Shown here: piece by piece, positions 3,135-30,022 of the stretch | How the letters are laid out: every line of letters begins with the position of its first letter | How positions within the stretch are numbered: the first letter of the stretch is position 1 | NCBI GenBank assembly: GCA_036274315.1 | Contig: DASUFY010000074.1 | Span: 698-64,697, forward strand | Direction: 5' to 3' | Length of the DNA: 64,000 nt | Source of the DNA: Planctomycetota bacterium | GTDB taxonomy: Bacteria; Planctomycetota; UBA1135; UBA2386 | Translations under genes and position numbers: made by a program | The notes under the pieces: generated by a model | What the model was told of the DNA's origin: nothing | Seen by the model: only the letters and a program-made list of their open reading frames with translations | Database searches by the model: none

Positions 3135-3950
3135 TCACGCCGCGCGCGCACGTTTGCTGCGGCGCGGACGGCCATTGCCGGCGCCGCCGCCGCCGCCGCG
3201 GCGCCACTGCCGCACGGCCTCGCGCAGCGCTTCGCGCTCGTGCGCGGTCAGCGGCCGCAGCTGCCCCGCGGCGAGTTCGCCGAGCTCGACCGGTCCGACG
3301 GCGATGCGGTGCAGGCGCACGACCGTGCGGCCGATCGCCGCCGCCATCCTGCGGATCTGACGGTTCCGCCCTTCGCGGAGCTCCATGATCACGCGCCGGC
3401 CGCCGGCGCCGGGCACGGGCCGCGCGCGCACCGGCCGCAGCTCGGTGCGATCGGGCAGGCGCATGCCAGCCCGGAACGGCGCCAGCTCGGCGTCGCTGAC
3501 GGCGCGATCGAAGGTCACGTCGTAGACCTTCGCCAGTGCCGAGCCGGTGAGCGCCGCGCCGAGCCCGGTGTCGTTGGTCAGCACCAACAGGCCGCTGCTG
3601 TCGCGGTCGAGGCGACCGACCGGGAACAACCACGGCAGATCGGCGGGCAGCAGGTCGTAGATCGTGCGGCGGCCGCGCTCGTCGGCCCGCGTCGTCACGA
3701 CATCGACGGGCTTGTGGAACGCGAACGCGGCCGGTGCTCGGCGCCGCGCCGGCTCGCCGTCGAGCGCGATGCCGCGGTCGGGATCGACCCAGCGATCCGG
3801 ATCGCGGCAGATCCGTCCGTCGACGGCGACGCGCCCGGCCGCGATCGCGGCCCGCGCCAGGCTCCTCGACAACACGCCGAGCTTGCTCAGCGCGCGCGCG
3901 AGGGTGACGCGGTGCGAGGATGCGGGGACGGGACGACGCGGGGCCGCCAT
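3135..3950 (-). CDS. rRNA pseudouridine synthase, RsuA/RluB/RluE/RluF family
   Basis: 271 aa. It has an N-terminal S4-like RNA-binding segment (RVTLARALSKLGVLSRSLARAAIAAGRVAVDG). The synthase core follows, with the catalytic-Asp motif PVGRLDRDSSGLLVLTND and REGRNRQIRRM. Confidence 0.9.
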   Translation of the reverse strand: MAAPRRPVPASSHRVTLARALSKLGVLSRSLARAAIAAGRVAVDGRICRDPDRWVDPDRGIALDGEPARRRAPAAFAFHKPVDVVTTRADERGRRTIYDLLPADLPWLFPVGRLDRDSSGLLVLTNDTGLGAALTGSALAKVYDVTFDRAVSDAELAPFRAGMRLPDRTELRPVRARPVPGAGGRRVIMELREGRNRQIRRMAAAIGRTVVRLHRIAVGPVELGELAAGQLRPLTAHEREALREAVRQWRRGGGGGAGNGRPRRSKRARAA

Positions 3951-4142
3951 GCGAGCGGAACACTACGCGAACGGCGCCGCAGGTGCGCGGCGAGCGGCCG
4001 TGGATCAACCTGCCCTGACCGATGCACCGGCCGTCGGTTGCAACCGCGGCCGTTTCGAAGGAGCCTTCCAGGGGACGCAAGAGGAAACCGTGCTCCCGCC
4101 TGCATCCGGTCGTCGCGATCGCGGGAAGAGAATGGCACCGCG

Positions 4143-7100
4143 ATGTCCCGCTCGGTCGAACACGAACTGCTGCTGCACACCGCCGCCCTGCGGCGCCTCG
4201 CCCGGCAGCTGGTCGGGGCCCAGCACGCCGACGACCTGGTGCAGGACACGGCCCTGCTCGCGCTGCAGACGACGCCGCGGCGGCCGGGGCCGCTCGGCGG
4301 CTGGCTCCGTGGCATCGTGCGCCACCTGGCCATGCACCACCGCCGCGGCGAACTTCGCCGGCGCGCGCGCGAACTGGCGCAGGCGCGGCCCGAAGAGGTG
4401 CCACCCGACCGTTCGGTCGCCGAACGGGACACGCTGCGGCGCCTGAGCGAGGCCGTGTTGTCGCTGCCGGAGCCGTATGGCCAGGTGCTGCTGCAGCGCT
4501 ACCTGCGCGAACGATCGCCGCAGCAGATCGCGCGCGCGAGCGGCGTGCCGCTGGCGACGGTCAAGAGCCAGCTGCAGCGCGGCCTGCAACTGCTGCGCGA
4601 ACGGCTGCAGCGAGACGGCGGCGACTGGCGCGCGGCGCTGGTGGCCGGGTTCGGCATCGAACACGCGCTGCCGATCGCGGCCGCGACGACCTCGGGAGTG
4701 TTGCTCATGTCGACGATGGCCAAGTGGGCCGCCGCGGCCGCGGTGCTGCTGGCGGCGTCGGGTGGACTGTGGTGGGCGCTGCGACCACCGATGCCGGCGG
4801 TGCGCGAGCCGGTCGACGCGATGTCCGTTGCCGCGGCCGGCACCGAAGCGGGAGCGGCGAGGCCGACCGCGGGCACGATCGGGCCGGTGCCGGCCGCGTT
4901 GCAGCGCGTTGCGGCGCCGCCCGCGCCGGCGCGAGGCAACGGCGCCGTGCTGCGCGGCCGTTGCGTCGATGACCATGGGCCGCTGGCCGGCGTCGCCGTC
5001 GAACTGCACGGCGCCCGCGCCGAGGGCACGGCCGACGAGTCGATCGACCTGCACGCGGCCACCGGCGCCGATGGCAGCTTCGCCTTCACGTTCGCTCCCG
5101 TGACCGGACAGTCCTTCCGCCTGCAGCTCCAGGCCGAGGAAATGGCGGACTCGGAGGCCACGTGGAACCACATCGCGGCCGATGCCACCATCGATCTCGG
5201 CGACGTGCTGCTGCTGCGTGCGGTCGCCGTGCGCGGCAGGGTCTTCGACGAACAGGGTGCGCCCGTGCCGGGCACGTCGGTGCACCTGCGCCGCGGCGAC
5301 CGCGACGACGGACCGGCGCGGCCGCGCCCCTACCAATCGGCGACGACCCGCGACGACGGCACGTTCGCGTGCGGGTTCGGCCTGGCGAGCGGAAGCTGGC
5401 AAGCCGACGTGCAGGCGCGCGAACTGGTGGCCGATGGCACTGTGCTGCTGCAGGCTCCGGCCGCCGATCTGCGACTCGTCGTGCGCACCGTGAGCGCATC
5501 GCACACGATCGCCGGCGTCGCCACGGACGAAACGGGGGCGCCGCTGGCCAGAGTGGCGATCCGAACCGTCCCGACCCGCGATGGGGCGCTGCACAGGACG
5601 CGGCGCGACGGCAGCTTCGAGCTGATCCGCGGGCGGGACGCCGGCGACGAGCCCGTCCGGCTCGCGTTCGAGAAGCCCGGCTACGAGACCGAAGAGACCG
5701 AAGCGGTCGCCTGGGGCAGCCGCGACCTGCGCGTCGTGCTGCACGCCAACGGCGGGCAGATCGTGCACGTCGTTCGCCTCGACGACGGCGCGCCGGTCGA
5801 GCACTGCACGCTGCACGCGCTGTGGCTCGCGCAACCGGGCGCCGCCCACAGCAACGAGAACCACGCGACCGTGCGCGGACCCTTTGCTCGAGGCCGCGCG
5901 GTCCTGCACCTGCGCAGCGGCGAGTACCGGCTGCTCGTCGAGCCCGACGACGCGCAGCTCGACTGCAGCGAGCTGTTGCCGTTCACCGTCGCGGGAGCCG
6001 ATGCCTCGACCGTCGTGCGGTTGCCGCCGCGGCTCGAACGGCGCGTCCGCGTGCAGTACCGGGACGGCTCACCGGTCGCCGGCGCACTCGTGCAGCGCTG
6101 CCTGCCACCGCTGCGGCCCGAACGCTTCCTCGATGTGTGCATGCCCCTGGACCCGTGGCTGCTCCAGGCCAACTGGGACAACGTGTCGCTGCGGCTCGAA
6201 GCCGGCATCACGGACGATCGAGGCGAGCTGCTGCTGCACGGCAGCTGCGGTCGCAGCGACACCCTGGTGCTGCCGGGCCCGGGACACGCGCCGTGCGGGG
6301 TGCCGTTCGGAGTCGAGGGCGACGGGCCGCAAGTGATCACCGTCGCCGCCGGCGCGCACCTGCGCGGCCGATGCACGCCGCCCGCCAGCGTGGCGGCGCT
6401 GCGCGCGCCGGCGCTGCGGCTGCGCGGCGATGGGGCGGCCAGATTCCCCGATCTGGATCGACCGCCGATCGCGATCGATGCCGAAGGTCGCTTCGACGTC
6501 GAGGGAGCACCGCCCGGCGCGTGGCGCATCGAACTGCGGCTGACGACGGTCAACGACGGTGGCGGCACGTTCACGTCCGGAGTGCCGGTCGGTCGCGTCG
6601 ATCTGCGCGAGGGCGAGACGGCGTTCGCGACGGTCGACCTGGCGCCGCTGCAGTGCGAGGAGGGCACGCTCGACGTCATGGTGCTGCACAACGGCGAGCC
6701 GTTGCGCAACGCCTTCGTGATGCCCATGGCGGTCGCGGCACCGGACAGCGTCAGCCTCGCCGGCCGCGCATCGTGGACGAGCCGCATCGACGCCGAGGGA
6801 CACATGCACAGCGAGCGCTGGCAGGGTCGCTACCGGTTGCTGTGGAGTCCGAAAGGCGTGCAAGGGCCAGACGCGCGCAGCCTGCGCGCGGACGAGATCC
6901 TGGAGGTCGTGCCGGGGCAGACGACGAAGGGCACGGTGCACTTCCGCAGCGGCACGCTGCGCGTGCACGTTCGCGATGCCGCGCAACGACCGCTGCCCGG
7001 CATCGCGGTCGAGCTCGTCGATGCGACCGGCGAGTGGTGCGCGACGCTGCCGCCAACCGACCGCGACGGCGCGGCCGAGCAGCTCGTCGAAGCCGGAACG

Positions 7101-7283
7101 TTCACGTGCCGCGCGCTGCCGGCGGAGCTGCTGGCGCAGAATCCGCAGCGCGCATCGCAACGCCCGCGGCAGCACGGCGAGGACCCACTGGCGCCGTCGC
7201 TGCTGCCCCTCGGCGAGGTGCTCGTGCAGCAGGGGGCCACGACGCAGGTGGTGTTGCAGCTGCCGCCGGCGAAGCCGCACTGA
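4143..7283 (+). CDS. ECF sigma-70 domain fused to a TM helix and a roughly 800-aa repeat ectodomain (1046 aa)
   Basis: ORF 3240..7283 was trimmed to ATG 4143 (MSRSVEHELLL). It has sigma region 2 (ADDLVQDTALLAL) and the region 4 HTH (SPQQIARASGVPLATVKSQLQRGLQLLRERL). A hydrophobic helix WAAAAAVLLAASGGLWWAL follows. After that come repeated units such as LRGRCVDDHGPLAGVAVEL...GADGSFAFTF and VRGRVFDEQGAPVPGTSVHL...RDDGTFACGF, a carboxypeptidase-regulatory-like beta-sandwich pattern. Confidence 0.85.
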   Translation: MSRSVEHELLLHTAALRRLARQLVGAQHADDLVQDTALLALQTTPRRPGPLGGWLRGIVRHLAMHHRRGELRRRARELAQARPEEVPPDRSVAERDTLRRLSEAVLSLPEPYGQVLLQRYLRERSPQQIARASGVPLATVKSQLQRGLQLLRERLQRDGGDWRAALVAGFGIEHALPIAAATTSGVLLMSTMAKWAAAAAVLLAASGGLWWALRPPMPAVREPVDAMSVAAAGTEAGAARPTAGTIGPVPAALQRVAAPPAPARGNGAVLRGRCVDDHGPLAGVAVELHGARAEGTADESIDLHAATGADGSFAFTFAPVTGQSFRLQLQAEEMADSEATWNHIAADATIDLGDVLLLRAVAVRGRVFDEQGAPVPGTSVHLRRGDRDDGPARPRPYQSATTRDDGTFACGFGLASGSWQADVQARELVADGTVLLQAPAADLRLVVRTVSASHTIAGVATDETGAPLARVAIRTVPTRDGALHRTRRDGSFELIRGRDAGDEPVRLAFEKPGYETEETEAVAWGSRDLRVVLHANGGQIVHVVRLDDGAPVEHCTLHALWLAQPGAAHSNENHATVRGPFARGRAVLHLRSGEYRLLVEPDDAQLDCSELLPFTVAGADASTVVRLPPRLERRVRVQYRDGSPVAGALVQRCLPPLRPERFLDVCMPLDPWLLQANWDNVSLRLEAGITDDRGELLLHGSCGRSDTLVLPGPGHAPCGVPFGVEGDGPQVITVAAGAHLRGRCTPPASVAALRAPALRLRGDGAARFPDLDRPPIAIDAEGRFDVEGAPPGAWRIELRLTTVNDGGGTFTSGVPVGRVDLREGETAFATVDLAPLQCEEGTLDVMVLHNGEPLRNAFVMPMAVAAPDSVSLAGRASWTSRIDAEGHMHSERWQGRYRLLWSPKGVQGPDARSLRADEILEVVPGQTTKGTVHFRSGTLRVHVRDAAQRPLPGIAVELVDATGEWCATLPPTDRDGAAEQLVEAGTFTCRALPAELLAQNPQRASQRPRQHGEDPLAPSLLPLGEVLVQQGATTQVVLQLPPAKPH

Positions 7284-9977: not shown

Positions 9978-10376
9978 TCAACTGTCGACGCGCACGTGCA
10001 GGTAGAGCAGCACGTCCGCGATGCCATCGCCCTCGGGGATGATGGGGTAGTTCAGGGCCGCGGTCGGCCCGTAGTCCCACTTGCCCGTGTTCTGGTTGTA
10101 GCGGGATGTCGAGCGACGCGTCTCGTCGATGTCGACCTTGTTGTCCGCCTCCCAGCGCTTGAATGCAGCGGTCTTGGCGAAGGTCGTGAAGTGGTCGTGC
10201 AGGATCTCCGTTTGCAGGATGAGATCGGAATCGCCGTCGACCTCGGCCTTGGTGTCCAGTGCGAAGAGTCTGGTGTACTTCGCAGCCGGCGGATCCAGGA
10301 GATCGAAGGTCATCGTCTTGTTCTTGGCGACGACTCTGCGTTCGTAGATTTCGTAAACGACAGGGATCTTGGGCAT
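9978..10376 (-). CDS. hypothetical protein (132 aa), last gene of the sigma/kinase operon
   Basis: ORF 9978..10652 was trimmed to ATG 10376 (MPKIPVVYEIYERRVVAKNK...). A GAGG motif sits 8 nt upstream and overlaps the TAG of the preceding gene (5-nt gap). The protein is acidic and soluble-looking, with no Cys and no signal peptide. GC is visibly lower than in the neighbours. No family recognised. Confidence 0.7.
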   Translation of the reverse strand: MPKIPVVYEIYERRVVAKNKTMTFDLLDPPAAKYTRLFALDTKAEVDGDSDLILQTEILHDHFTTFAKTAAFKRWEADNKVDIDETRRSTSRYNQNTGKWDYGPTAALNYPIIPEGDGIADVLLYLHVRVDS

Positions 10377-10381
10377 GGCCT

Positions 10382-11245
10382 CTACCTCAGGACAAAGGAC
10401 TCGGGAATGCCAGGCTTCGGGGGTACGGGCTTCTCGGGTGCAGCCCCCGTGGGTGGAGTTGGCGGTTCGAATTGAGGCTTCTCCGCGCGGTCGCGCAGCG
10501 CCGCCGCCACGCCGACCGAGAACGTCGCGATCGTGAAGATCGGTCTGCGCTTCTCGTAGGTGGCGAACAGCTCGCGCCAGTACGTGTTGCCGGCGCGGAA
10601 GAAGTGGTTCGAGTAGGCGCTCTCGAGGCGGCTCCTGCCGTTCCAGTAGCAACTCGGGAAGATCTCGGCCATGCAGACGAAGGTCGGCAGCAGCCCGAGC
10701 CAGAAGGCCCGCTTGCCGTTGACGTTCCAGGCGGCGAAGTAGAGTGCCGCTTCGGCGAACGAGAAGAACTGCACGCCGTCGGGAATGCCCGCGCTCGCCA
10801 GGTCGTCCTTCGGGGTCGCACCGGTCAGCGTCATCTCGCCGCAGGTGAACGCGCCGAGGATCTCGGTGAACTCGACGTGTGCGCGGTCGCGTTGGCGCAG
10901 GAAGCCCTGCTCGAGCAGCCCTCGCACGTGCTTTTCAACGATGGCAGCTGCCTCCAGCCAACGCTCGTCTTCGGCGGGCAGGCAGAAGGGCTGGCCGCGC
11001 AGGGCGGCGGCCGCGCGGCGCGTCGTGCGGAAGGACAGGTGATTGCGCAGGAAGTCGATGGCGTCGCCGGCGTCCCTGGCCTTCGCGCCGCTCGGGAGCG
11101 GCTTGTCGCCCATTCCCCAGAGCACCTCGGGATCGGTCATCTTGTCGAAGTGGGCCAGCGCGAGCATGCGCCGTCGGCGCACGGGATCCTTCTCCTTCCT
11201 GGTGAGTTCGCGGCGGCGGTCGTGATAGGGCTGAACAGTGGTCAT
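10382..11245 (-). CDS. hypothetical protein (287 aa) with a Pro-rich C-terminal tail
   Basis: ATG 11245 has GAGG 5 nt upstream, overlapping the kinase TGA (6-nt gap). The composition is protein-like (FFSFAEAALYFAAWNVNGKRAFWLGLLPTFVCMAEIFPSCYWNGRSRLESAYSNHFFRAGNTYWRELF). A late hydrophobic stretch IFTIATFSVGVAAAL is followed by the tail PQFEPPTPPTGAAPEKPVPPKPGIP. No family recognised. Confidence 0.7.
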   Translation of the reverse strand: MTTVQPYHDRRRELTRKEKDPVRRRRMLALAHFDKMTDPEVLWGMGDKPLPSGAKARDAGDAIDFLRNHLSFRTTRRAAAALRGQPFCLPAEDERWLEAAAIVEKHVRGLLEQGFLRQRDRAHVEFTEILGAFTCGEMTLTGATPKDDLASAGIPDGVQFFSFAEAALYFAAWNVNGKRAFWLGLLPTFVCMAEIFPSCYWNGRSRLESAYSNHFFRAGNTYWRELFATYEKRRPIFTIATFSVGVAAALRDRAEKPQFEPPTPPTGAAPEKPVPPKPGIPESFVLR

Positions 11246-11251
11246 GGAACC

Positions 11252-13819
11252 TCAGGGTTGGTCGCTGCGCGCGCAGCGGAAGCCGCAGGCGCAGCGCACG
11301 TGGTCGTGGATGCCATCGGTGCGCACGTTGAACGGCAGGCCCCGCTTGCGCGTGTCCCACCAGGTCCCTCCTTGGATGAACCGTTCGTTCGCCCAGTAGC
11401 GCAGACTGTCGCCGGTGCGGCTGACCCCGACGCTCTCGACCCACTCCTCGACGTTGCCGAGCATGTGGTGCACGCCTTCGGGCGTCGCGGCGTCGGGCAT
11501 CGAGCGCACGGGGGTCGCGAGCCGGACGAAGGCGCTGACCTGTGCCGGCCAGCCGAGGTCGGCCGCGTGCGGATCCTCGCGCTCGAGTGCGCCGCGAACC
11601 TCCGCGTCCTCGGTGGGGGCATACGGCAGCCAGCGATTCTGTTTGCCCCTCGCCGCCCACAGCCACTCGGCGCGCGTCGGCAAGCGCTTGCCGCGCCATT
11701 CCGCATAGGCGCGCGCATCCTCCCAGCTGACGAACACGGCCGGCAACTCCGCGACCTCGGGATGCTCGCTGGCGTGCGCGTCGAGCAGCGACCACGCCAC
11801 GTTCATCGGCCGTTGCGTGCGCTGCACGAACTCGCGGAACTCGCCGATGCTGACCTCGTACCGATCGAGCCAGAACGCGGCCACCGTCGCGACCCGGCCA
11901 CTGCCCGGTCCGGGCGGCGCCAGCGGTTCGGGCTGCAGCAGGTCGCCGCCCTGGATGCGGACCATGTCCGAGCCCGGTTCGGTCGGGCTCGCCGTGCCCG
12001 CGACCACGCACTGCACGACGTGGTTCCAGCGGCCGACGTCGAGCATCCGGGTCAGCTCTCGCAGGCCGCCTGGCAGGTGGAACTGCAAGCGCCAGTAGCC
12101 GGCTGGCAACGCGTGCTGCTCGACCGGCAACGCGCCGAGTTCCACGGTTGGACCGAGCTCGTCGGTGAAGGGGTCGATCCTGCGGGCGGTCGCCGTGCCG
12201 GCGAGCGCGGCGTCGTCGGGGCCGCGCGCGGTCAGCGACACGCGCGCATCGAAGGGCCGGTCCGGAAACGCAGTCTGCACTTCGCGGTCGGTCGGGAACA
12301 GGTGGCGCGCGCGCCCGAGCCGGTGGGTGCTCTCGAACAAGGTCTGGAAGCGCGCCGGATCGTCCGCCACTTCGTCGGTGGGGTTGGTGGCCGAGTGCAA
12401 CAGCGCAAGCCCGCTCTGCAACAGGTCGCGGCGCATTGAGTCGAAGCGCGCGGCCGCCCGATGGACCGGACTCGAGTCGAGCAAGTCGGGGTCTCGCATC
12501 GCCTGCTCGAGTTGCTCGAGCCCGGCCTGCAGTTCGCGATCCGTCAGCGGTTGCCAGTCGGCGATCGCCAGCAGTCGTTCGAGCGCGGCCACGGTCTGTC
12601 GCCGGCCTTGGGCTCGCGTCACCGAACTCGTGGCGAAGCTCGCGCCGGTGGCCGCGACCAGGACCAGCGCGGCGGCACTCAGCGGGCGCCAATGCCGCCG
12701 GCTCCAGTTCTGGAGTCGGCGCCAGACCGGAGTCGGTCGCGCGTGGATGGCGTCGTGCGCGAGGAAGCGCTCGAGGTCGTCGCGCAGCGCCGCCGCGGTC
12801 GGGTATCGATCGGCGACGTCCTTCGCCATCGCCACGCTGCAGATCGTCTCCAGATCGCGCGGTACGCGCTTGTTCCGCTTGCGCACCGGCGGTGCCACAC
12901 TCTGCTGGATCTGGCTGAGGACCTCGTGGTCCGTCAGGCCCTCGAACGGCCGCGTCAGCGTCAGCAGCTCGTAGAGCACCACACCGAGCGAGTACACGTC
13001 CGTGCGATGATCGACGCGATCCTTGCCGCGGAGGCGGGCCTGCTCGGGGCTCATGTAGTAGAGCGAGCCCGGCGCCTCACCGGTGCGCGTGAGCGTGCCG
13101 TAGCGCGCGGTCCGGGCGATGCCGAAGTCGGCCACCTTGACGTGACAGTGGCGGTCGAGCAGCAGGTTCTGCGGCTTGACGTCGCGGTGCACGATGCCGG
13201 CCCGATGGGCGCAGTCGAGTGCGTCGGCCGCATCGGCGCAGATGCGGGCGACGGCCGTGACGTAGCCCGAGTTCGCGAAGGCCGGCAGCAGCGGCGCGGG
13301 ATCGTTCGGCAAACGATCTCTCTGCAGGTCGATCTCGCGCCCCATGTCGTGGCCGTCCACGTACTCCATCGCGAACCAGTGCGTGGCGCCCTCGCTGCCG
13401 TCGGTGAAGACCTGCACGATGTGCGGATGGTTCAACTGCGCGGCGGCGCGCGGCTCGCGGTGGAAGCGCTCGATCTGGCGCTCGGAAGTCGCCAGCGACT
13501 CCGTCAGCACCTTGAGCGCGACCTTGCGGTCGAGCGACCGCTGCGTCGCCAGGTACACGGGCAGGTTGCCGCGCCCCAGTTCGCGTTCGATCACGAAGTC
13601 CTGCAGGCCCGGCGGCTCGGCCTTGGCCGCCGCGGCATGCAGGTCCACGGGCCTCAGGAAGTCGTCGCTGGGATTGGCCGCGAGCAGCGCCATCGCCTCG
13701 GCCCGCATGGCCGCGTCCTCGCCGCAAGCGTCCGCGACGAACGCCGCGCGTTGCTCGACCGGCAGGCCAAGGGCCTGGCCGATGATCTCCTGCATGCGTT
13801 GGAAGCGTGGATCGCTCAC
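11252..13819 (-). CDS. Ser/Thr protein kinase, single TM, with a C-terminal FGE-sulfatase (SUMF1-like) ectodomain
   Basis: GTG 13819 overlaps the sigma gene's TGA (GTGA); the alternative start is ATG 13795. Kinase motifs are ALKVL, HRDVKPQNLLL, DFGIAR and SPEQ. The TM segment is LSAAALVLVAATGASFA. The C-terminus carries FGE-type blocks FWLDRYEVSIGEFREFV, VSWEDARAYAEWRGKRLPTRAEW, HMLGNVEEWV and CGFRCA. Confidence 0.9.
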   Translation of the reverse strand: MSDPRFQRMQEIIGQALGLPVEQRAAFVADACGEDAAMRAEAMALLAANPSDDFLRPVDLHAAAAKAEPPGLQDFVIERELGRGNLPVYLATQRSLDRKVALKVLTESLATSERQIERFHREPRAAAQLNHPHIVQVFTDGSEGATHWFAMEYVDGHDMGREIDLQRDRLPNDPAPLLPAFANSGYVTAVARICADAADALDCAHRAGIVHRDVKPQNLLLDRHCHVKVADFGIARTARYGTLTRTGEAPGSLYYMSPEQARLRGKDRVDHRTDVYSLGVVLYELLTLTRPFEGLTDHEVLSQIQQSVAPPVRKRNKRVPRDLETICSVAMAKDVADRYPTAAALRDDLERFLAHDAIHARPTPVWRRLQNWSRRHWRPLSAAALVLVAATGASFATSSVTRAQGRRQTVAALERLLAIADWQPLTDRELQAGLEQLEQAMRDPDLLDSSPVHRAAARFDSMRRDLLQSGLALLHSATNPTDEVADDPARFQTLFESTHRLGRARHLFPTDREVQTAFPDRPFDARVSLTARGPDDAALAGTATARRIDPFTDELGPTVELGALPVEQHALPAGYWRLQFHLPGGLRELTRMLDVGRWNHVVQCVVAGTASPTEPGSDMVRIQGGDLLQPEPLAPPGPGSGRVATVAAFWLDRYEVSIGEFREFVQRTQRPMNVAWSLLDAHASEHPEVAELPAVFVSWEDARAYAEWRGKRLPTRAEWLWAARGKQNRWLPYAPTEDAEVRGALEREDPHAADLGWPAQVSAFVRLATPVRSMPDAATPEGVHHMLGNVEEWVESVGVSRTGDSLRYWANERFIQGGTWWDTRKRGLPFNVRTDGIHDHVRCACGFRCARSDQP

Positions 13820-14412
13820 GACAGTTCGCGCTTGAGCCACGCGCGCGCCGCGCGCAGTCGGCGTTCGGTGGTGCTCACGCTGAGTTCGAGGTTGTGCGCG
13901 CACTGCGTGACCGTCAGGCCGAGGAAGAAGTGCAGATCGACGATCTGCGCGCCTTCGTGGTCCAGCGCGTAGAGCCGCTCGAGCGACTCGTGCAGCGCGA
14001 CGCAGTCGCTGCCGTCGGTGTGACGTTGCACGGCGTCGGCGACCTCGTCGAGATAGAGCCGCCGGCCCGGCGGCCGGCGTTTCCCGGAGTGCTTGCGCCG
14101 GATGTGATCGACGAGGATCTGGCGCATGGCGCGGGCGGCGACGCGCAGGAAGTGCTCGTGGTTGTTCCAGACCTTGCCCTCGGCGCCGCACAGCTTGATC
14201 CACGCCTCGTGCACGAGCGCCGTCGGCTGCATCGTCGCGGGCCGTCCGCGGGCAACGAGACAGCCGGCGATTGTCCGCAGCTCCAGGTAGATGTCGTGGA
14301 ACAACTCCGCCTGACGGTCGGGGTCGCCAGCTCGCGGGTCGAAGGCACCCGGATCAGGGTCGTGCGTCGGCATCGGCTGGCGTCTCCGGGCGGCCAAGCA
14401 GGCAACGGTCAT
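13816..14412 (-). CDS. ECF sigma factor of the kinase-associated type (Sigma70_ECF / TIGR02999-like; ECF43-like)
   Basis: LFHDIYLELRTIAGCLVARGRPATMQPTALVHEAWIKL...WNNHEHFLRVAARAMRQILVDHIRRKHSGKR matches my memory of this family. Region 4 is IVDLHFFLGLTVTQCAHNLELSVSTTERRLRAARAWL. The start may be ATG 14412 or ATG 14373 (GGAG lies 10 nt upstream of the latter). Confidence 0.9.
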   Translation of the reverse strand: MTVACLAARRRQPMPTHDPDPGAFDPRAGDPDRQAELFHDIYLELRTIAGCLVARGRPATMQPTALVHEAWIKLCGAEGKVWNNHEHFLRVAARAMRQILVDHIRRKHSGKRRPPGRRLYLDEVADAVQRHTDGSDCVALHESLERLYALDHEGAQIVDLHFFLGLTVTQCAHNLELSVSTTERRLRAARAWLKRELS

Positions 14413-14460
14413 TGTAGTCAGCGAGTCTCCTCGACGCAGTTTCGGATGGTGGAAATGACC

Positions 14461-14486
14461 CGCGGTGCGGCGGTTACCGCACCGCG
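14461..14486 (-). terminator. perfect 10-bp inverted repeat (CGCGGTGCGG-N6-CCGCACCGCG) between the MBOAT gene end and the sigma gene
   Basis: The repeat is read directly from the sequence. It lies about 170 nt downstream of the MBOAT stop, and only a weak T-tract (TCATTTCC) follows on the minus strand. It may be a terminator or an operator; function is unproven. Confidence 0.25.
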
Positions 14487-14654
14487 GGCCGTCTTCCTCG
14501 CCTGTTTCCCGCGGGAGAACGCAAACGACCCGACCAGTCCGTCAGGTTTCTTCGGGTCGTCGGTCCGGCGCGCCGCCACGGTGCCACGGTGCGCGATCGC
14601 CGCGGCCGCGATACCGCGACGCTGCATTCACGAGAACGCGCGGGGCAACCTCGC

Positions 14655-16094
14655 TCAGAAACGGAAGTAGATGAACGGATTGTAGGAGGAGTTCACGACG
14701 GCGAGGCAGCCGATCACGAGACCGAGCCAGACCACGACGGCGAACACCGGTGCGCCGAGCCGTGTGCGCGCCCAGGCGAGGAACCGCTGTTCGAGGGCCA
14801 GGTAGCGCTGCGACCAGGGCAGGAACGCGACGAGCGCGGCGACCGCGAACAGGACCAACGTGTACGTGTCGAGCGGGACGAGCGAGTTGAGGCTCGGTTC
14901 GGTCCAGTCCGGTCCGCTGCCGCGGAACATGCGGGCGAGGAAGCTGCCGGCGTGGGTGAGGTCCCTCGTGTTGAAGATCACCCAGCTCACCAGCACCAGG
15001 AACACCATCATCGGGCGCAGCACCAGAGCGGGCAGTCGCGCGGCGATGCGTTGCCAACCCAGCTTGTCGACCGTGAGGAAGACGCCCTGGTAGGCGCCCC
15101 AGACGACGAAGTTCCACGCGGCGCCGTGCCAGAACCCGGAGATCAGGAACACGACCCAGAGGTTCAGATAGCCTCGCAGCGTGCCGACGCGGTTGCCGCC
15201 CAGCGGGATGTAGATGTACTCCCGCATGAAGTTCGACAGCGAGATGTGCCAGCGACGCCAGAACTCGGTGAACGTGCGTGCGACGTAGGGGCGGTCGAAG
15301 TTCTCGAGGAACTCGAACCCCATCATGCGGCCGAGGCCGATCGCCATGTCCGAGTAGCCGGAGAAGTCGAAGTAGATCTGGAAGTAGTAGGCGAAGGCCG
15401 CCATCCACGCGAAGCCCTGGGAAACGACCCCGATCGGGCGGTTGAAGACCGGATCGCAGACGGCCGCCATGCCGTTGGCGAGCAGCGCCTTCTTGCACAG
15501 CCCGAGCACGAACCGTTCGACGCCGCGCCAGAACCGGTCCGCGGTGTGTTGGCGGCTGCGGATCTGGAGATCGACGTCGTGGTAGCGCACGATCGGCCCG
15601 GCGATCAGCTGCGGGAACAACACGACGTACAGCAGGCAGTCGGCGAAGCTGCGCGCCGGTTGCGCGGTTCCGCGGTAGACGTCGATGACGTAGCTGAGCT
15701 TCTGGAACGTGAAGAAGCTGATGCCGATGGGCAGCGCGACCGCGGTCCAGGTCAGCTCGCGATGGCCCATCGATGCGAGCGCCGAGTCGAGTTGCGCGAC
15801 GAAGAAGTTCGCGTACTTGAAGTAGCTGAGCACGCCGATGTTGCCGACGACGCTCAACCAGACCCAGAGTTTGCGTCGTCGCCCGTGCGGGCTGCGGACG
15901 ACCGCGTGCGACAGCAGGTAGTCGACGAGAGTGCCGCCGAGCAGCACGTAGACGAACTCCGGTGCTCCCCAGGCGTAGAACGCGAGCGAGGCGAACAGGG
16001 CGACCGCGTTCTTCGCGACCCGCGGCGCCAGGTGGTACAGGACCAGGAACGCCGGCAGGAAGTAGAAGAGGAAGAGGCTCGAGGTGAAGACCAC
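14655..16094 (-). CDS. MBOAT family O-acyltransferase (AlgI/DltB-like), 479 aa
   Basis: ORF 14655..16454 was trimmed to GTG 16094 (VVFTSSLFLFYFLP, a typical MBOAT N-terminus). Family blocks are ISFFTFQKLSYVIDVYRG, FPQLIAGPIVRY, FWRRWHISLSNFMREYIYIPLGGNR and SGFWHGAAWNFVVWG, the last containing the conserved His. Confidence 0.9.
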   Translation of the reverse strand: MVFTSSLFLFYFLPAFLVLYHLAPRVAKNAVALFASLAFYAWGAPEFVYVLLGGTLVDYLLSHAVVRSPHGRRRKLWVWLSVVGNIGVLSYFKYANFFVAQLDSALASMGHRELTWTAVALPIGISFFTFQKLSYVIDVYRGTAQPARSFADCLLYVVLFPQLIAGPIVRYHDVDLQIRSRQHTADRFWRGVERFVLGLCKKALLANGMAAVCDPVFNRPIGVVSQGFAWMAAFAYYFQIYFDFSGYSDMAIGLGRMMGFEFLENFDRPYVARTFTEFWRRWHISLSNFMREYIYIPLGGNRVGTLRGYLNLWVVFLISGFWHGAAWNFVVWGAYQGVFLTVDKLGWQRIAARLPALVLRPMMVFLVLVSWVIFNTRDLTHAGSFLARMFRGSGPDWTEPSLNSLVPLDTYTLVLFAVAALVAFLPWSQRYLALEQRFLAWARTRLGAPVFAVVVWLGLVIGCLAVVNSSYNPFIYFRF

Positions 16095-16176
16095 GGACGA
16101 GGGCGAGGCGCGCGGCGACTGGTCGTACCGCGGGCGTTGTGTTCTACTGAGCAGGCGCGTTCTGCACCATCGCCCG

Positions 16177-17415
16177 ATGTCTCTCTTGCCGCGTCTTTGC
16201 AGGTTGGTGTCATCGATCGCCTTCGTGCTCGTGCTGTCCTTGCCGTTGTTGCAGACGGCGTTCGGGTTCGCGCCGACGTTTCGACTCAGCGGTGTCGTCC
16301 CCGCTGCCGAGGAAGCGCCGGTGTCGTTGGAGTCCTGGCACAGTGGCGCTCTGCAGGAATCCATCGAGGCGCAGATCGAGAAGAGTCTCGGCCTGCGAGA
16401 CTGGATGGTCCGGTTGGACAACCAGTGGAAGTTCTGGTTGCTCGGCGTCACCAAACGGCCGGTCGTCGCCGGACCGGGGGGCTGGCTCGTCGAAGACGGC
16501 TATCTGACGTCCCGCACGCACCTGCGGGGGAACCAGGGCACGAGCATCATCGGCAGCGTCTACGCGTTGACGCAGGCCCAGCTCGTGCTCGCCGAACATG
16601 GCGTGACGATGCTGTTGCTCGTGACGCCGAGCAAGACCGAGACGCTGCCGGAGCACCTGCCGCTGCCCTACCGCCTCGTCGACGAAGCCAACCACGTGCG
16701 GCACATCGACCTGCTGCGCGCGATCCTCGACAGCGGGTGTTGCAACCATCTCGACGCGCAGAGGCTGTTCGAGCAGTGGCGCGACAGCGAGCCCGACTTC
16801 GTGCTCTTCCCGCGGTCGGGTACCCATTGGAGCAACGTGGCTGCGGCGCGCGTGGCCGTCGACCTGCTCGACGAACTCGAACGACTGTCCGGCATCGACC
16901 TCGTCAACCTGGACCTGGCGCCGAGGGTGATGGGGAAGGGGCCCGCCGCGAGCGAAGACGACATGGCGGTGCTCGCCAACCTGGTCGACCACAGCTGCCT
17001 CCGCGACCCGATGCCTATTGCCCGCACGCAGCGTCGGCCCGGGGATCACGGCGCCGCGCAAGGCCTCCTGCTCGTGAGTTCGAGCTTCGCCTGGCGGCTC
17101 GCCGAAGCGATGCAGTCGCCGGACGTGGTTTCGCCGCTCACGGTCTACTACTACTTCAAGTCGGCGTACGACTATCGCGACGGGCGCGTCGGCGAGAAGC
17201 GTGCGATCGACTTCGACCCGGCCGCCCTGCGCGCCGAGATCCTCCGCTACCGCTTCGTGGTCGTCGAATGCAACGTGTCGAAGATCCCCGAGCTCGGGTT
17301 CGGCTTCCCGAAGGCCGTGCTCGAGGCGTTCGGGCCGCCGAAGACCGGGTTCCCGGTGATCGCACGGGACAAGCTGGACAGGATCCAGAGAATGTCGGTG
17401 CCGGGTCGCCGGTGA
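16177..17415 (+). CDS. AlgJ/AlgX-like SGNH-type O-acetylation partner protein (412 aa)
   Basis: ORF 16084..17415 was trimmed to ATG 16177 (MSLLPRLCRLVSSIAFVLVLSLPLL, a signal anchor). FPRSGTHWSNVAAARVA resembles the D/G-T-H-W block of AlgJ/AlgX proteins. The gene is divergently paired with the MBOAT gene (82-bp spacer), which is the usual partnership. Confidence 0.65.
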   Translation: MSLLPRLCRLVSSIAFVLVLSLPLLQTAFGFAPTFRLSGVVPAAEEAPVSLESWHSGALQESIEAQIEKSLGLRDWMVRLDNQWKFWLLGVTKRPVVAGPGGWLVEDGYLTSRTHLRGNQGTSIIGSVYALTQAQLVLAEHGVTMLLLVTPSKTETLPEHLPLPYRLVDEANHVRHIDLLRAILDSGCCNHLDAQRLFEQWRDSEPDFVLFPRSGTHWSNVAAARVAVDLLDELERLSGIDLVNLDLAPRVMGKGPAASEDDMAVLANLVDHSCLRDPMPIARTQRRPGDHGAAQGLLLVSSSFAWRLAEAMQSPDVVSPLTVYYYFKSAYDYRDGRVGEKRAIDFDPAALRAEILRYRFVVVECNVSKIPELGFGFPKAVLEAFGPPKTGFPVIARDKLDRIQRMSVPGRR

Positions 17416-20100: not shown

Positions 20101-23064
20101 TCAAAGCTCGACCACGATCGGCTCGGCCAGTTCGCCGGCGAACACCACGCGCCGCCGCCGCCGCGCCTCACCGCGTTCGAGTTCTTCGCGCGTGCCGACC
20201 CGCAGTTCCCACGTGCCGATCGGGACGTTGCTCAGGGCGAAGTAGCCGGGGCTGCTCGCCGCCAGCACCGTCTCCCAGACGTCGTCGTGATCCGGCGCGC
20301 TGATCATCAGCAGTCGACCGCCGTCGTCGGCCAGCGCGACGCAGGCCGCGAAGTGCTCGGAGTGCTCGCCGAACCGGATGCGGCCGCGACACGTCGCTGT
20401 GTTCGACAGCGTGAGCGGCAGTTCGACCTCGTCGCCGGCGACCGTCACCGGTCCTGTCGTGACGCGCGAGAGCGGCTCGCCGTCTGGCCCACGTGCGCTG
20501 ACGGAGATCCAGGCGGGGCCGCGGTCGAGCAGCAGTTCGACGACGCCGCGCGCATCGGCGTCGGTGCGCGGCGATCGGCGGTGCACCTCGAGGCGCCAGA
20601 TCCCTTCGGGGCGCCGGATGCGCTGGGGCACGGGCAGCGTGCACAGCGCGTGCAGTGCCGCGTGCGACCAGGCGGTGGTCGGGCCGAGCGCGGGCCACGC
20701 CGGGTCGACGCCGTCGTCGGCTTCGAGGTGGCCGACGCGAACTTCGACCTCGCCGATCGCCGTCGCCGAAGCACTCGCGAGGAGTCGCAACCGGGTGCGC
20801 TTCGCCGGCTCGAGCACCACTTCGATCGGCTCGCCGGGGCGAACGTCGTCCCGGACCGCCGTGGTGAAGCCGTCGCCGGCGACTTCGAGCCTCTGCACCG
20901 CGCCGGCGATGCTCGGCACACGGAACGCGCCGTGCTCGTCGGTCCGCCACGCTCCGCTGTGCTCGATCCAGTCGCCTTCCCCCGGGAACCTGAGCAGGCG
21001 ACGGACCTGCGCCGCGACGGCACGCCCGCTCGCATCGTGCACGCGACCGACGAGGCTCTGTGCCGGCGCGAGCCGGAGCTCGACGAACATCGGCTCCGCA
21101 CCATCGATCTGCAACCGCCGCACCGCGCGGGGTCCCTCGCTGTCTCCCGACTTGCGGGCGGTGATCAGCAGGAGCTGGTCCCTCCAGGCTCCGGACAGCG
21201 GCAGCTCGAATCGGCCAGACGCATCCGTGGTCGCCATGCGGATCGACTCGAGGTACCCGCCGTGCACCATCTCGAACCAGAGGTCGGCGCCGCTCGCCGA
21301 CTGCCCGTCGGGGTCGACGACGGTCACGTGCACTGAGAGGTCGGTGCCGAGCACGAGGCGCAAACGCCGTCGCTCGCCGGCGCCGACCGAGATCGGTCGC
21401 CCGGTCGGGGATCCCGGCGCCACGCCCTGCCCGTCCTGTTCGTGCACGAACATGCTCTCACCGGCCAGCAGCACGAGGTCCAACCCGGCGGGAACGCACA
21501 GCGTCGCGGCGCCCTGCGCAGTCGGCGCCCTCGCGAGCAGCGGCGTGCGCGGCCTGCAGTCCGTGGCCGCGAACAGACCGGTCTCGGTGCTGCCGACCGC
21601 CACGCCGACTCCGTCGACGTGGAGCGCGGGTCGGCCCGAGGCATCGACGATCTCGACGGTCAGGGTGCCGGCCGGTGCCAGCAGGATGCGCGCCGGCTGC
21701 CAGCCGCCGCGCGGCAGCGCACGAAGCTCGGACGTCCCGACCTGGATGAAGCCCTCGCGCTCGGCCGCCAGCCACGACCCGGCGTCGGCCGTCGCGAACA
21801 CGAAGTGTCCGTCCTGGTCGGCGGAGGTCTCGATCGCGACGCGCTCTCCGTCCTGCCGATGGGTGAGCGTGACACGGGCGCCAGCGACCGCGGTGCCCGA
21901 GGGTTCGGTCACGATGCCCTCGAGTCGACCCTGTGGATAGCGGGTCAGCACGAGCTGTTCGGGTGGTCGGTCCACGCCCTTCGCGGCGGACCAACGCGCG
22001 GCGCGCAGGACCTCGGTGCCGTCCGCCTTGGCCGCGACGAGCACGGCGTCGTCAGGCAGTTCGATCTGGAAGTGCCCCTGCGCGTCCGTCGTGACCTCGA
22101 CCTCGACCGTGCTCGCGGTGGGCACGGTGAGCACTTCCGGGGTCTTCGCGTCTGCTGCGCGCGCGGCGCCGTGCGAACTCGCGGACCCGCCCGGTTGCCG
22201 CAGCCGGCAGCGCACGGTGACGTTCGCCGCTGGCTGGCCGTGGCCCGGTGCCGCGCCGATCGCGGCGTCTTCGACGAGGCCGTGCACGAGCGTCGCCGGC
22301 GATGCGGTTGCGAGCGGATCGCGCTGCACGCGCGGGTCGACCGTCGTTCGTGAGAGCGCGGTGCCGCGGCTGGCGGTGGTCGACTGCGCCGGGGCCGGGT
22401 CGTTCGCGTGCCAGGACAGCGACGTGACCGCGACGGTGGTGATGAGCACGAGGCCGGCCGCGTTGCGCAGCAGGCGCAACACCGGCGCGCGTGTCGTCAC
22501 CGCACCAGCGCCCGGCGGCATGCCGAGCGTGCCCGGGTCGAGTCCGCCGATCGCGCAGAGCGCGGGCAGCCAGTTCTGCCGGCCTGCCGGATGGTCAGCG
22601 TCGAGGCGTTCGCGGAGTCGGGCCAGCGCGCGGGCCAGGCGCGTCTTGACCGTGCCGAGCGGGACGTCGAGTCGCGCCGCGATCTGCTGCGGCTTCAGGT
22701 TCTCGTAGTAACGCAGGAAGATGGCGTCGCGACCGGGGGCGTCGAGCGCCTCGACGTGCTGCAGCAGGCGGCGCGCGACGTCGAGTTTGACGGCGACGTC
22801 GGCGGTGTCGGCGGAGATGGGGGCACGCGCGGCGGTGCGCTCGCGGGCGCGCCGGCGCGTGCCGGTGCGCATGTGGCGCGCGGCGCGCTTGCGCAGCACG
22901 GCAGCCAACCACGGGACGAGGCCGTGGGGGCGCGGGGCGCCGGTCAGCGCGGCGACGCAGGTCTCCTGGACGAGGTCGTCGGCGGTGTGCTCGTCGGTGG
23001 CGAGGCGGCGGGCCAGGGCGCGCAGGAACGGGGCGTGGGCGGTGAACTCGGCTTCGAACGTCAT
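20101..23064 (-). CDS. ECF sigma-70 domain fused to a TM helix and a roughly 750-aa repeat ectodomain (987 aa); same architecture as 4143..7283
   Basis: ORF 20101..23445 was trimmed to ATG 23064 (MTFEAEFTAHAPFL). Region 2 is ADDLVQETCVAAL. Region 4 is KPQQIAARLDVPLGTVKTRLARALARLRERL. The TM segment is AAGLVLITTVAVTSLSW. Repeats follow, such as LEGIVTEPSGTAVAGARVTL...DQDGHFVF, VHVTVVDPDGQSASGADLWF...DASGRFELPL and LVGRVHDASGRAVAAQV...DEHGAFRVPS. Confidence 0.85.
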   Translation of the reverse strand: MTFEAEFTAHAPFLRALARRLATDEHTADDLVQETCVAALTGAPRPHGLVPWLAAVLRKRAARHMRTGTRRRARERTAARAPISADTADVAVKLDVARRLLQHVEALDAPGRDAIFLRYYENLKPQQIAARLDVPLGTVKTRLARALARLRERLDADHPAGRQNWLPALCAIGGLDPGTLGMPPGAGAVTTRAPVLRLLRNAAGLVLITTVAVTSLSWHANDPAPAQSTTASRGTALSRTTVDPRVQRDPLATASPATLVHGLVEDAAIGAAPGHGQPAANVTVRCRLRQPGGSASSHGAARAADAKTPEVLTVPTASTVEVEVTTDAQGHFQIELPDDAVLVAAKADGTEVLRAARWSAAKGVDRPPEQLVLTRYPQGRLEGIVTEPSGTAVAGARVTLTHRQDGERVAIETSADQDGHFVFATADAGSWLAAEREGFIQVGTSELRALPRGGWQPARILLAPAGTLTVEIVDASGRPALHVDGVGVAVGSTETGLFAATDCRPRTPLLARAPTAQGAATLCVPAGLDLVLLAGESMFVHEQDGQGVAPGSPTGRPISVGAGERRRLRLVLGTDLSVHVTVVDPDGQSASGADLWFEMVHGGYLESIRMATTDASGRFELPLSGAWRDQLLLITARKSGDSEGPRAVRRLQIDGAEPMFVELRLAPAQSLVGRVHDASGRAVAAQVRRLLRFPGEGDWIEHSGAWRTDEHGAFRVPSIAGAVQRLEVAGDGFTTAVRDDVRPGEPIEVVLEPAKRTRLRLLASASATAIGEVEVRVGHLEADDGVDPAWPALGPTTAWSHAALHALCTLPVPQRIRRPEGIWRLEVHRRSPRTDADARGVVELLLDRGPAWISVSARGPDGEPLSRVTTGPVTVAGDEVELPLTLSNTATCRGRIRFGEHSEHFAACVALADDGGRLLMISAPDHDDVWETVLAASSPGYFALSNVPIGTWELRVGTREELERGEARRRRRVVFAGELAEPIVVEL

Positions 23065-23333
23065 GGCGGATCGCGCGGGTCTCGGTGTACCCGTTCTGTT
23101 CCCGCGGTGCCGAAAGCGATGTCCGGGCGCGTGGAAACTTCGTGCGCGCGACGTGCGGTCCCATCGCCGAACTCGTGTAACGGCGGACGCGTTGCGCGGC
23201 TTGCTCGGCAGGTCCACCCGGAATCCGAACCACCGCGTCCGTGCCTTCGGCTGCCGCCTTCCGGCGCACGCCGGAGCTCCGGCCCCGTGTACGCCCGCGG
23301 CGCGGCGCCGCGCAGCCCGATACCATCCTCCCG

Positions 23334-29890: not shown

Positions 29891-30022
29891 CGGGATTCCG
29901 CGTCACAGCGTGCGCCCCAGGTCATCGAGGCAGTGCCGCTGCCGACGAGTCCCGCCGCAGCGGCCGCGACCAAGGCGAAGGCTCGCCGTCGCGCAGCTCG
30001 GACTCCATCGATCGAAACCCGC

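Follow-up and report, generated by a model that had tools for sequence, protein, structure and literature searches.

Phosphorylation-activated ECF sigma factors have been worked out recently in two proteobacterial examples, EcfP–PknT of Vibrio parahaemolyticus and EcfK–PknS of Xanthomonas citri, and are described as two-component switches of a sigma factor and a kinase. The hallmark of the ECF43 group is that, where other ECF sigma factors have the acidic DAED motif, an uncharged stretch stands that includes a conserved Thr, the consensus being QTTA (PMC8999054, PMC13147305), and according to reviews ECF43 sigma factors need no partner beyond the kinase. The locus described here resembles both systems in having a minimal sigma2–sigma4 factor of the PF07638/TIGR02999 type, an uncharged Thr-containing motif (QPTA) in place of DAED, an adjoining transmembrane Hanks kinase, and no recognisable anti-sigma factor. 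It differs from them in the FGE-sulfatase-like extracytoplasmic domain of its kinase, in that phosphorylation here is a prediction, and in two further coupled genes; none is described for those two systems, an earlier mention elsewhere being possible. The planctomycetal groups ECF59, ECF61, ECF62, and ECF217 share with it the phylum, a sigma gene adjoining a Ser/Thr kinase gene, and the lack of an anti-sigma gene, but they keep, according to a review, a DAED-like acidic motif, which is missing here. Canonical ECF sigma/anti-sigma operons are alike in that the sigma factor is co-transcribed and translationally coupled with the genes of its own signalling partners, which together make up a complete module that is duplicated as a whole.

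The locus lies in a window of 64,000 nucleotides (the whole stretch of DNA analysed) from a Planctomycetota bacterium. An earlier note on this DNA had placed four genes with coupled junctions on the minus strand. The list of open reading frames and the junctions, read directly, bear out both the tight coupling and the coordinates, and the features are as follows.

14413–14654, minus strand: intergenic region upstream of the sigma gene, presumed location of the promoter
13816–14412, minus strand: ECF sigma factor of the ECF43 type, 198 aa (PF07638, TIGR02999)
14218–14229, minus strand: codons of Q62-P63-T64-A65 in sigma region 2.2; T64 (14221–14223) is the predicted phospho-acceptor
11252–13819, minus strand: transmembrane Hanks-type Ser/Thr kinase, 855 aa, GTG start (Pkinase and FGE-sulfatase matches; HRD, DFG, SPE)
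12785–13594, minus strand: cytoplasmic kinase catalytic domain, aa 76–345 (PF00069)
12617–12685, minus strand: single predicted transmembrane helix, aa 379–401 (Kyte-Doolittle, the sole segment above 1.5)
11267–11971, minus strand: FGE-sulfatase-like domain, aa 617–851 (PF03781), predicted to be extracytoplasmic from the single transmembrane helix
10382–11245, minus strand: 287-aa protein of an undescribed, predicted all-helical family (exhaustive HMMER search, alignment A1)
10377–10392, minus strand: coupling junction of the 287-aa and 132-aa genes, GAGGTAGAGGCC preceding the ATG, with Shine-Dalgarno sequences within the end of the upstream gene
9978–10376, minus strand: 132-aa protein of a fast-evolving small beta-rich family (profile searches, synteny, fusions)

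The sigma factor matches PF07638 over aa 27–197 (E = 2.8e-39) and TIGR02999 with 155.6 bits, above the cutoff of 126.15. In keeping with these models, it has the sigma2 and sigma4 regions only. The motif QPTA, placed by eye, occupies the position of DAED in ordinary ECF sigma factors and is followed by LVHEAW. Among the aligned sigma factors of related loci, T(M/L)QPTALV is kept in all but one, L002, which has HATV and thus retains the Thr. Judged by the two models, the motif, and the adjacent Hanks kinase, the protein is an ECF43-type sigma factor, as the earlier note had proposed. No anti-sigma match is found in the operon with Pfam or NCBIfam; the 287-aa protein could play such a role. The N-termini of the homologues suggest that translation may start at the second ATG, Met14 (14373), giving a protein of 185 aa.

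The kinase matches Pkinase (PF00069, E = 2.3e-39) and FGE-sulfatase (PF03781, E = 2.1e-32), and the Hanks-type motifs VALKVL, HRDVKPQN, DFG, and SPE are read in its translation. The PF03781 match runs end to end, from profile position 3 to 255 of 255, over the C-terminal 235 aa. This domain thus shares the FGE-sulfatase fold with FGE (SUMF1), PvdO, GldJ/GldK, and the C-terminal domain of EgtB. True FGEs, such as human SUMF1, have behind their GGS motif two catalytic Cys residues that bind copper (C-x4-C). In the kinase, GGTWW is followed by DTRKRGLPFNVRT, in which, by eye against the SUMF1 motif, this Cys pair is absent. Therefore, the domain is probably a ligand-binding sensor rather than an enzyme.

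The junctions are close throughout. The TGA of the sigma gene overlaps the GTG of the kinase gene at 13816–13819 (GTGA), as noted before, and the two genes are also neighbours at all related loci with contig sequence beyond the start of the kinase gene. The kinase TGA (11252–11254) does lie in a Shine-Dalgarno sequence (tGAGG), but the spacing to the ATG at 11245 is 4 nt (TTCC), not 5 nt. The TAG of the 287-aa gene (10382–10384) overlaps a GAGG, as claimed; that GAGG ends only 2 nt before the ATG at 10376, however, and the Shine-Dalgarno sequence of the 132-aa gene is more plausibly another GAGG, whose end lies 8 nt upstream. Similar coupling is present in relatives, with AAGGA(G/A) within the last codons in L005/L006, L007, L009, and L011/L012, and with ATGA overlaps in L007, L010, and L012. 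Codon periodicity of both distal genes is strong and like that of neighbouring genes (GC3 0.875 and GC2 0.50 for the 287-aa gene; GC3 0.85 and GC2 0.38 for the 132-aa gene). Together with the homologues found elsewhere, this indicates that both genes are real.

Upstream of the sigma gene, the intergenic region contains a perfect 12-bp GC-rich hairpin (14459–14488) and a terminator-like hairpin downstream of the MBOAT gene (14528–14547). No sigma-70-like promoter is found upstream of the sigma gene in the window, and among 11 homologous regions upstream of sigma genes of related cassettes no k-mer exceeds the shuffles as a shared promoter motif. The window contains no Rfam family and no tRNA.

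The two distal proteins had been described as matching nothing recognisable, and the searches agree, as Pfam, NCBIfam, PADLOC, PHROGs, and PDB sequences yield no match for either of them. Profile searches with single sequences and family profiles give no homology to a characterised family (best PDB profile E values 0.25 and 0.49). In neither protein is a signature recognisable that would point to an anti-sigma factor, an FHA domain, a phosphatase, or DNA binding, or to an enzymatic, transport, or secretion function, and both lack a transmembrane helix and a signal peptide. AlphaFold2 models from single sequences without alignments are unusable (pLDDT 48 and 39), and Foldseek with the unusable 132-aa model returns nothing (best E = 0.6).

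A word-indexed homology search, with single sequences and with the family alignment, returned only the proteins themselves. An exhaustive HMMER search, in contrast, finds relatives of the 287-aa protein that, clustered at 50% identity, form about 50 groups, and no member of the family has a significant match in Pfam or PDB. The family is marked by the motifs FDxxTDP, G(V/I)PDG, FxFAEAALxF, FWxxxLPxFV, and YWxGxxR. In alignment A1, D34, R77, G136, P155, W182, and Y211 are invariant, and the invariant or near-invariant charged residues are D34, D38, R73, R77, D156, E165, and R206. The conserved positions are mostly aromatic or hydrophobic, and no His or Cys is conserved. Unlike canonical anti-sigma factors, the 287-aa protein has no anti-sigma domain, no zinc-binding HxxxCxxC, and no membrane anchor. 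Roughly half of the family has an additional N-terminal domain of about 90 aa, which shows no similarity to the small protein (E = 0.43 and 0.76). Sigma-factor mimicry by the family was considered and rejected (hhalign against the cassette sigma factors, E = 0.82). A C-terminal helix-turn-helix is hinted at by a few weak Pfam matches of single members (EutK_C, E = 0.031 at LTISELAAEF); we give it little weight because the helix that would have to contact DNA is hydrophobic (IVGIALRD) and because this stretch is degenerate in the protein of the window.

The Pro-rich tail of the 287-aa protein and the acidic, Cys-free character of the 132-aa protein (net charge −4) are both as the earlier note described them. 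Wherever downstream DNA is present and the 287-aa homologue is unfused, a gene for a small protein of 116–143 aa comes next. In some relatives, the domain is instead fused to the C-terminus of the 287-aa homologue. In particular, jackhmmer started from the 132-aa protein reaches the C-termini of seven long members of the 287-aa family, for example residues 349–480 of P0050, with zero false matches among about 1000 decoys. A second subclade has the same pattern of separate and fused forms: the small protein of L014 matches the C-terminus of the long member P0044 (E = 2e-8), and the small protein of L017 matches the profiles of both subclades (E = 1e-14 and 2e-4). Members of the 132-aa family are thus always found either behind a member of the 287-aa family or as the C-terminal part of one.

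The whole gene set recurs. In 16 of 16 related loci examined, which were picked through a 287-aa homologue and are therefore counted from that side, this gene adjoins a Pkinase + FGE-sulfatase kinase gene, and the ECF sigma gene also adjoins wherever the contig extends far enough upstream. The co-occurrence of the 287-aa/132-aa pair, proposed as a check in the earlier note, thus holds with sigma and kinase in every locus examined, and the recurrence and the fusions place the distal genes with the sigma/kinase pair. Identities to the proteins of the window are 35–38% for the sigma factor, 34–43% for the kinase, 27–38% for the 287-aa protein, and 24–34%, over short local BLASTP matches, for the 132-aa protein. 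A pattern-based locus scan with the single protein found no locus; with a narrower alignment it found one genome locus and five metagenome loci. The flanking genes differ at every locus, indicating that the module is autonomous; the neighbourhoods consist of ordinary housekeeping and envelope genes and are not defence islands. At the loci whose gene content was listed, neither the module nor its immediate surroundings include a phosphatase gene. Two complete cassettes stand in tandem at L005/L006. At L017, the pair of the 287-aa/132-aa type is divergent from sigma–kinase across a 383-bp region, a layout that fits an output role at least as well as an accessory role. Divergent layout is classical for a regulator and its target. 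Taken together, the gene content defines a four-part signalling cassette that recurs across Planctomycetota and, among the loci found so far, only there.

The distal genes had also been described as visibly less GC-rich and as possibly acquired separately. The lower GC is real, clearly so for the 132-aa gene (0.602, z = −4.8) and only mildly for the 287-aa gene (0.674, z = −1.6), against 0.709 ± 0.022 for 31 genes of the window. Most of the drop in both genes comes from codon positions 1 and 2, that is, from amino-acid composition, and is therefore no evidence of separate acquisition. GC3 and synonymous-codon scores are low but still within what native genes show, near the bottom of their range (z about −1.3 to −2.2). 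Foreign origin thus finds no support in GC3, codon usage, or synteny. Separate acquisition is further disfavoured by the presence of the sigma/kinase pair alongside these genes everywhere, and by the identity of the distal proteins to those of the window, which declines in step with that of sigma and kinase.

How might the four parts work together? The domain identities, the motif, the predicted membrane topology, the conserved gene set, and the fusions are observations. Building on them, we regard it as about an even call that the four genes encode a self-contained four-part transmembrane module, in which the new pair is a cytoplasmic, module-specific partner of the sigma/kinase switch. The membrane kinase would sense through its FGE-sulfatase-like domain on the outer side, the catalytic domain being in the cytoplasm. 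Once activated, it would, like PknT with EcfP and PknS with EcfK, phosphorylate Thr64 in QPTA, the replacement for the acidic patch that binds RNA polymerase, and the phosphate would supply the negative charge needed for core polymerase binding. The 287-aa and 132-aa proteins would be made in fixed proportion through translational coupling and, as the fusions and the coupling suggest, would form a cytoplasmic complex that acts as one unit. Rather than generic cargo, this unit may be a substrate of the kinase or an adaptor for it, or else it may hold the sigma factor or regulate it by feedback. Its regulatory role is the weakest step of the proposed mechanism. The constant company of two proteins, sometimes fused into one, suggests that a switch of this type has extra, unrecognised parts.

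The earlier note left the pair as either output or accessory components. That the pair belongs with sigma and kinase stands; the accessory or feedback role is a proposal, and a dedicated output is its main competitor, a possible but less probable reading in which the phospho-sigma factor would transcribe the two genes, from the operon or a divergent promoter, for a task in the cytoplasm. The two genes are distal in the operon, and at L017 they form a separate transcription unit. Moreover, nothing else is conserved around the module, so that these adjacent genes are the only visible candidate regulon. On the other hand, tandem duplication takes in the entire cassette with these genes, the proteins lack the signatures, helices, and signal peptides searched for above, and the very rapid divergence of the small protein would be expected of a partner that determines specificity more than of an effector; these points do not decide the matter.

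It is unlikely that the pair is instead a reset device, a phosphatase or a phospho-sigma-specific antagonist. Many Hanks-kinase operons carry a PP2C phosphatase, which the pair would replace here; the lack of a phosphatase gene in the listed loci and the seven conserved acidic and basic residues are consistent with this. However, there is no phosphatase-family similarity in Pfam, NCBIfam, or PDB, and the family has no conserved His or Cys and a mostly aromatic and hydrophobic, scaffold-like conservation.

We consider it very improbable that the four genes serve in defence against phage or in another biological conflict, with a Ser/Thr kinase at the centre and the two proteins as effectors. The kinase scores strongly against the PADLOC models PD-T4-6 and mad6 (MADS), but only within the generic catalytic domain (aa 71–410); the sigma factor and both distal proteins, and thus the partner genes, are unmatched. 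The neighbourhoods described above and the combination of an ECF sigma factor with an outward-facing sensor kinase point to envelope or environment sensing. Least probable of all, and already refuted by the synteny and fusion data, is that the distal genes came in by horizontal transfer as a lower-GC insert unrelated to sigma and kinase, or that they are spurious reading frames of a high-GC genome: the lower GC, the slightly low synonymous-codon scores, and the empty word-indexed search would fit, but GC3 and periodicity are gene-like, the exhaustive search finds homologues, and the same gene set stands in 16 other loci.

Most signalling in Planctomycetota is uncharacterised. Here, a clade of sigma switches predicted to be phosphorylation-activated is always accompanied by two more proteins of no described family, whose genes show translational coupling, are duplicated along with the switch, and have fused with each other repeatedly. 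In a tentative and more specific form of the partner reading, which we think somewhat doubtful, the pair would in this lineage be an obligatory cytoplasmic partner, in two proteins or a single chain, of an entirely new fold family. By binding the sigma factor or the kinase, it would determine how specific the phospho-switch is, how it is gated, or how it is reset. If true, sigma-factor regulators of a new class would be at hand. If the proteins take part in signalling, sigma factors would have a kind of regulator not seen before, and the four genes would form a defined system; if they are output only, they would still be two new protein families in a clear regulatory context.

The earlier note described four coupled minus-strand genes, and both the ORF listing and direct reading of the sequence bear this out, placing each gene as follows:

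13816-14412, minus strand, sigma gene
11252-13819, minus strand, kinase gene
10382-11245, minus strand, 287-aa gene
9978-10376, minus strand, 132-aa gene

As claimed, the stop codon of the sigma gene overlaps the GTG start codon of the kinase gene, GTGA being common to both codons. The kinase TGA does lie within a Shine-Dalgarno sequence (TGAGG), but the spacing to the next ATG is 4 nt, not 5 nt. Likewise, a GAGG is present before the ATG at 10376, but the TAG of the 287-aa gene is positioned between two GAGG boxes. On the 3' side, 35 nt separate the last stop codon of the cassette from the end of a convergent Kelch-repeat gene, and on the 5' side there are 242 nt between the sigma gene and an unrelated MBOAT gene. 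Therefore, the unit consists of exactly four genes.

The MBOAT gene (14655-16454, minus strand) encodes an MBOAT-family membrane O-acyltransferase and is divergent from a gene for an AlgX-like SGNH domain protein (16084-17415, plus strand); the two look like a polysaccharide O-acetylation pair. Given an overlap of about 370 nt between the two ORFs at their maximal lengths, the real start codons must be further in. At 14459-14488, 47 nt before the sigma ATG, there is a GC-rich inverted repeat with perfect 12-bp arms (CCCGCGGTGCGG / CCGCACCGCGGG) and a 6-nt loop; TCATTTCC comes next on the coding strand. The repeat could be the terminator of the MBOAT gene, or it could belong to the sigma operon as a leader or operator.

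The sigma factor matches PF07638 (E 2.8e-39) and scores above the TIGR02999 cutoff. Ordinary ECF sigma factors contact RNA polymerase through an acidic DAED patch, in place of which the ECF43 group carries, as its hallmark, an uncharged motif with the consensus QTTA (PMC8999054, PMC13147305). The group has no anti-sigma factor, and phosphorylation of the motif Thr by the adjacent Hanks kinase has been demonstrated for EcfP/PknT of Vibrio parahaemolyticus and EcfK/PknS of Xanthomonas citri (PMC8999054, PMC13147305). In the window, residues Q62, P63, T64, and A65 occupy the place of the DAED patch. All three pairs thus share an uncharged motif with a Thr in the sigma factor and an adjacent Hanks kinase gene, and by these features the sigma/kinase core is of the known ECF43-type kind.

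The kinase comprises a complete catalytic domain (residues 76-345), a single predicted transmembrane helix (residues 379-401), and an FGE-sulfatase domain matched end to end (residues 617-851). Because the single helix separates the catalytic and FGE-like domains, the FGE-like domain is predicted to lie outside the cell. True formylglycine-generating enzymes have a catalytic Cys pair. Since this pair is not seen on inspection of the FGE-like domain by eye, the domain is probably a sensor.

Other sigma factor and kinase genes are present in the window. Two long ORFs (20101-23445, minus strand, and 3240-7283, plus strand) contain ECF sigma regions 2 and 4 and a distal CarboxypepD_reg (and TTR/Big-like) region, pointing to ECF sigma factors whose C-terminal extensions are very long; with the ORF starts as called, some of these may be pairs of genes read in a single frame. 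The same gene type occurs near the cassette in two related Planctomycetota loci (L002:17242-19704 and L013:1-1449). A second Ser/Thr kinase gene (23241-26051, plus strand), which encodes a Pkinase domain only and no FGE-sulfatase domain, is divergent from the sigma-extension gene at 20101-23445, and this may be another, different way of linking a sigma factor to a kinase. In addition, a small ECF sigma factor with a weak PF07638 match (29300-29890, plus strand; E 2.9e-5) is followed after 42 nt by the gene of a 376-aa protein with no Pfam match (29933-31063, plus strand). They may represent one more uncharacterised pairing of a sigma factor with a partner.

The two distal proteins had been described as unlike anything recognised, and in accordance, searches of Pfam, NCBIfam, PADLOC, PHROGs, and PDB sequences give no match to either. 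A word-indexed homology search returned only the two query proteins themselves, which come from a Planctomycetota MAG and are annotated there as hypothetical (VFZ65_05210 and VFZ65_05205). When 1.84 billion cluster representatives were scanned exhaustively by HMMER with the two proteins concatenated as the query, 57 matches were obtained, about 50 of which (152-564 aa) are to the 287-aa protein; clear matches to the 132-aa protein number only two (43% and 45% identity). In a 34-member alignment of the 287-aa family, residues D34, R77, G136, P155, W182, and Y211 are invariant, and the motifs FDxxTDP, G(V/I)PDG, FxFAEAALxF, FWxxxLPxFV, and YWxGxxR are recognizable. No Pfam match is consistent across family members even at E = 1, and the family profile has no match in the PDB. 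About half of the family carries an N-terminal domain of about 90 residues, unrelated to the small protein and absent from the window copy. Neither a transmembrane helix nor a signal peptide is predicted in the 287-aa or the 132-aa protein. Judged from their sequences, the two proteins represent two real, undescribed families.

At position 37 of the window's 287-aa protein, which falls within the FDxxTDP motif, at least 90% of the 34 aligned proteins have Thr; the exceptions noted, the cluster representatives P0019 and P0034, have Ser. This residue could cap the N-terminus of a helix or be phosphorylated by the kinase of the same operon.

A gene encoding a small protein of 116-143 aa directly follows the unfused 287-aa homologue in all loci with downstream DNA. 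The small proteins are usually below BLAST detection in pairwise identity (24-34% to the window protein over short local matches); they align over their full length, with D41, S91, W100, and L126 invariant. An HMM built from the aligned small proteins matches members outside its training set in three loci (L007, L008, and L010) and also the C-terminal ~100 residues of long 287-family proteins; among the 53 family representatives, 12 are extended at the C-terminus by 137-188 aa. When the 132-aa protein was used as a jackhmmer query on about 1000 sequences, decoys among them, there was no false match, and seven fused proteins were recovered (P0050, P0027, P0038, P0041, P0025, P0055, and P0057). 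The pattern repeats in a second subclade, where the separate small protein of locus L014 matches the C-terminus of the fused protein P0044 (E 2e-8). The small protein of L017 matches the profiles of both subclades, and hhalign relates the two subclades to each other with an E value of 4e-4. Both the repeated alternation between fusion and separation and the translational coupling speak for the 287-aa and small proteins acting as one physical unit.

The co-occurrence of the distal pair with the sigma and kinase genes elsewhere is confirmed by the 16 related loci retrieved, near-identical contig pairs being counted as one. The order sigma, kinase, 287-aa homologue is collinear in 14 of them, three of which (L008, L009, and L010) are on contigs that break off inside the kinase gene. 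Complete collinear cassettes number 11 (L002, L003, L004, L005/L006, L007, L011/L012, L013, L014, L015, L016, and a second tandem cassette of L005/L006). On the contig of P0046, the sigma gene is divergent from the kinase-287-small genes, and the sigma factor is typed by PF04542/PF08281, not PF07638. In L017, sigma-kinase is divergent from the 287-small pair; the contig of L001 ends too early for a view of the upstream genes. The genes around the module differ from locus to locus at all loci, and the named sources are Planctomycetota MAGs throughout, apart from one labelled only 'bacterium'. Start/stop overlaps are repeated among the loci, and many 287-aa homologues have a conserved C-terminal 'KE(L/F)(R/Q)', because its codons contain the AAGGAG Shine-Dalgarno sequence of the next gene. 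Membership of the extra pair in the module is firmly established.

The tandem contigs L005 (706-8434) and L006 (63-7795) each carry two complete cassettes head to tail, with 144 nt between them. A frameshift or assembly break interrupts the first sigma gene of L005, where a 98-aa sigma fragment is called, and the kinase ORF of that cassette runs upstream into sigma-like sequence. Downstream of the divergent pair of L017 lies a series of Pfam-less genes (L017:8714-13626). Two paralogous proteins encoded in this series (379 and 505 aa) have signal-peptide-like N-termini and a common 'SGVNLQIVNGLGATNGNP' motif; neither matches the 287-aa or 132-aa profiles.

The lower GC content of the distal genes is real by computed GC and codon usage: values are 67.4% for the 287-aa gene and 60.2% for the 132-aa gene, against 71% for the window (z-scores of -1.6 and -4.8 relative to 31 window genes). 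However, the composition does not show a foreign origin, such as the acquisition as a cassette that the earlier note raised as a possibility. The shortfall lies mostly at codon positions 1 and 2, GC3 is 0.875 and 0.85, respectively (mean of the 31 genes 0.913, minimum 0.848), and synonymous-codon scores are low yet in the native range (z about -2). Therefore, amino-acid composition accounts for most of the step.

By analogy with the known ECF43 pairs, an external signal would act on the FGE-like domain and activate the kinase, the active kinase would phosphorylate Thr64 of the sigma factor, and the sigma factor would then bind polymerase and have the operon transcribed. The two new proteins would form a complex, as fusion and coupling suggest. 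In the least certain step, this complex would serve the kinase as substrate or adaptor, or else hold or modulate the sigma factor. No description of the extra pair was found in the ECF reviews and papers covered, within an incomplete coverage of the primary literature; what appears new here is an obligatory extra pair, made up of two families without an entry in any library searched.

In the main rival reading, the pair is no more than a dedicated output of the switch, which the divergent layout of L017 fits well. The other readings, in which the pair is a phosphatase-like reset device, part of a defence system, or a chance neighbour, are less probable or refuted. The pair is duplicated along with each sigma factor and kinase, the small protein shows the fast divergence typical of specificity partners, and neither protein has an enzymatic, transport, or secretion signature. 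For these reasons we favour, as the least certain of our conclusions, that the pair would be a module-specific accessory or feedback component.
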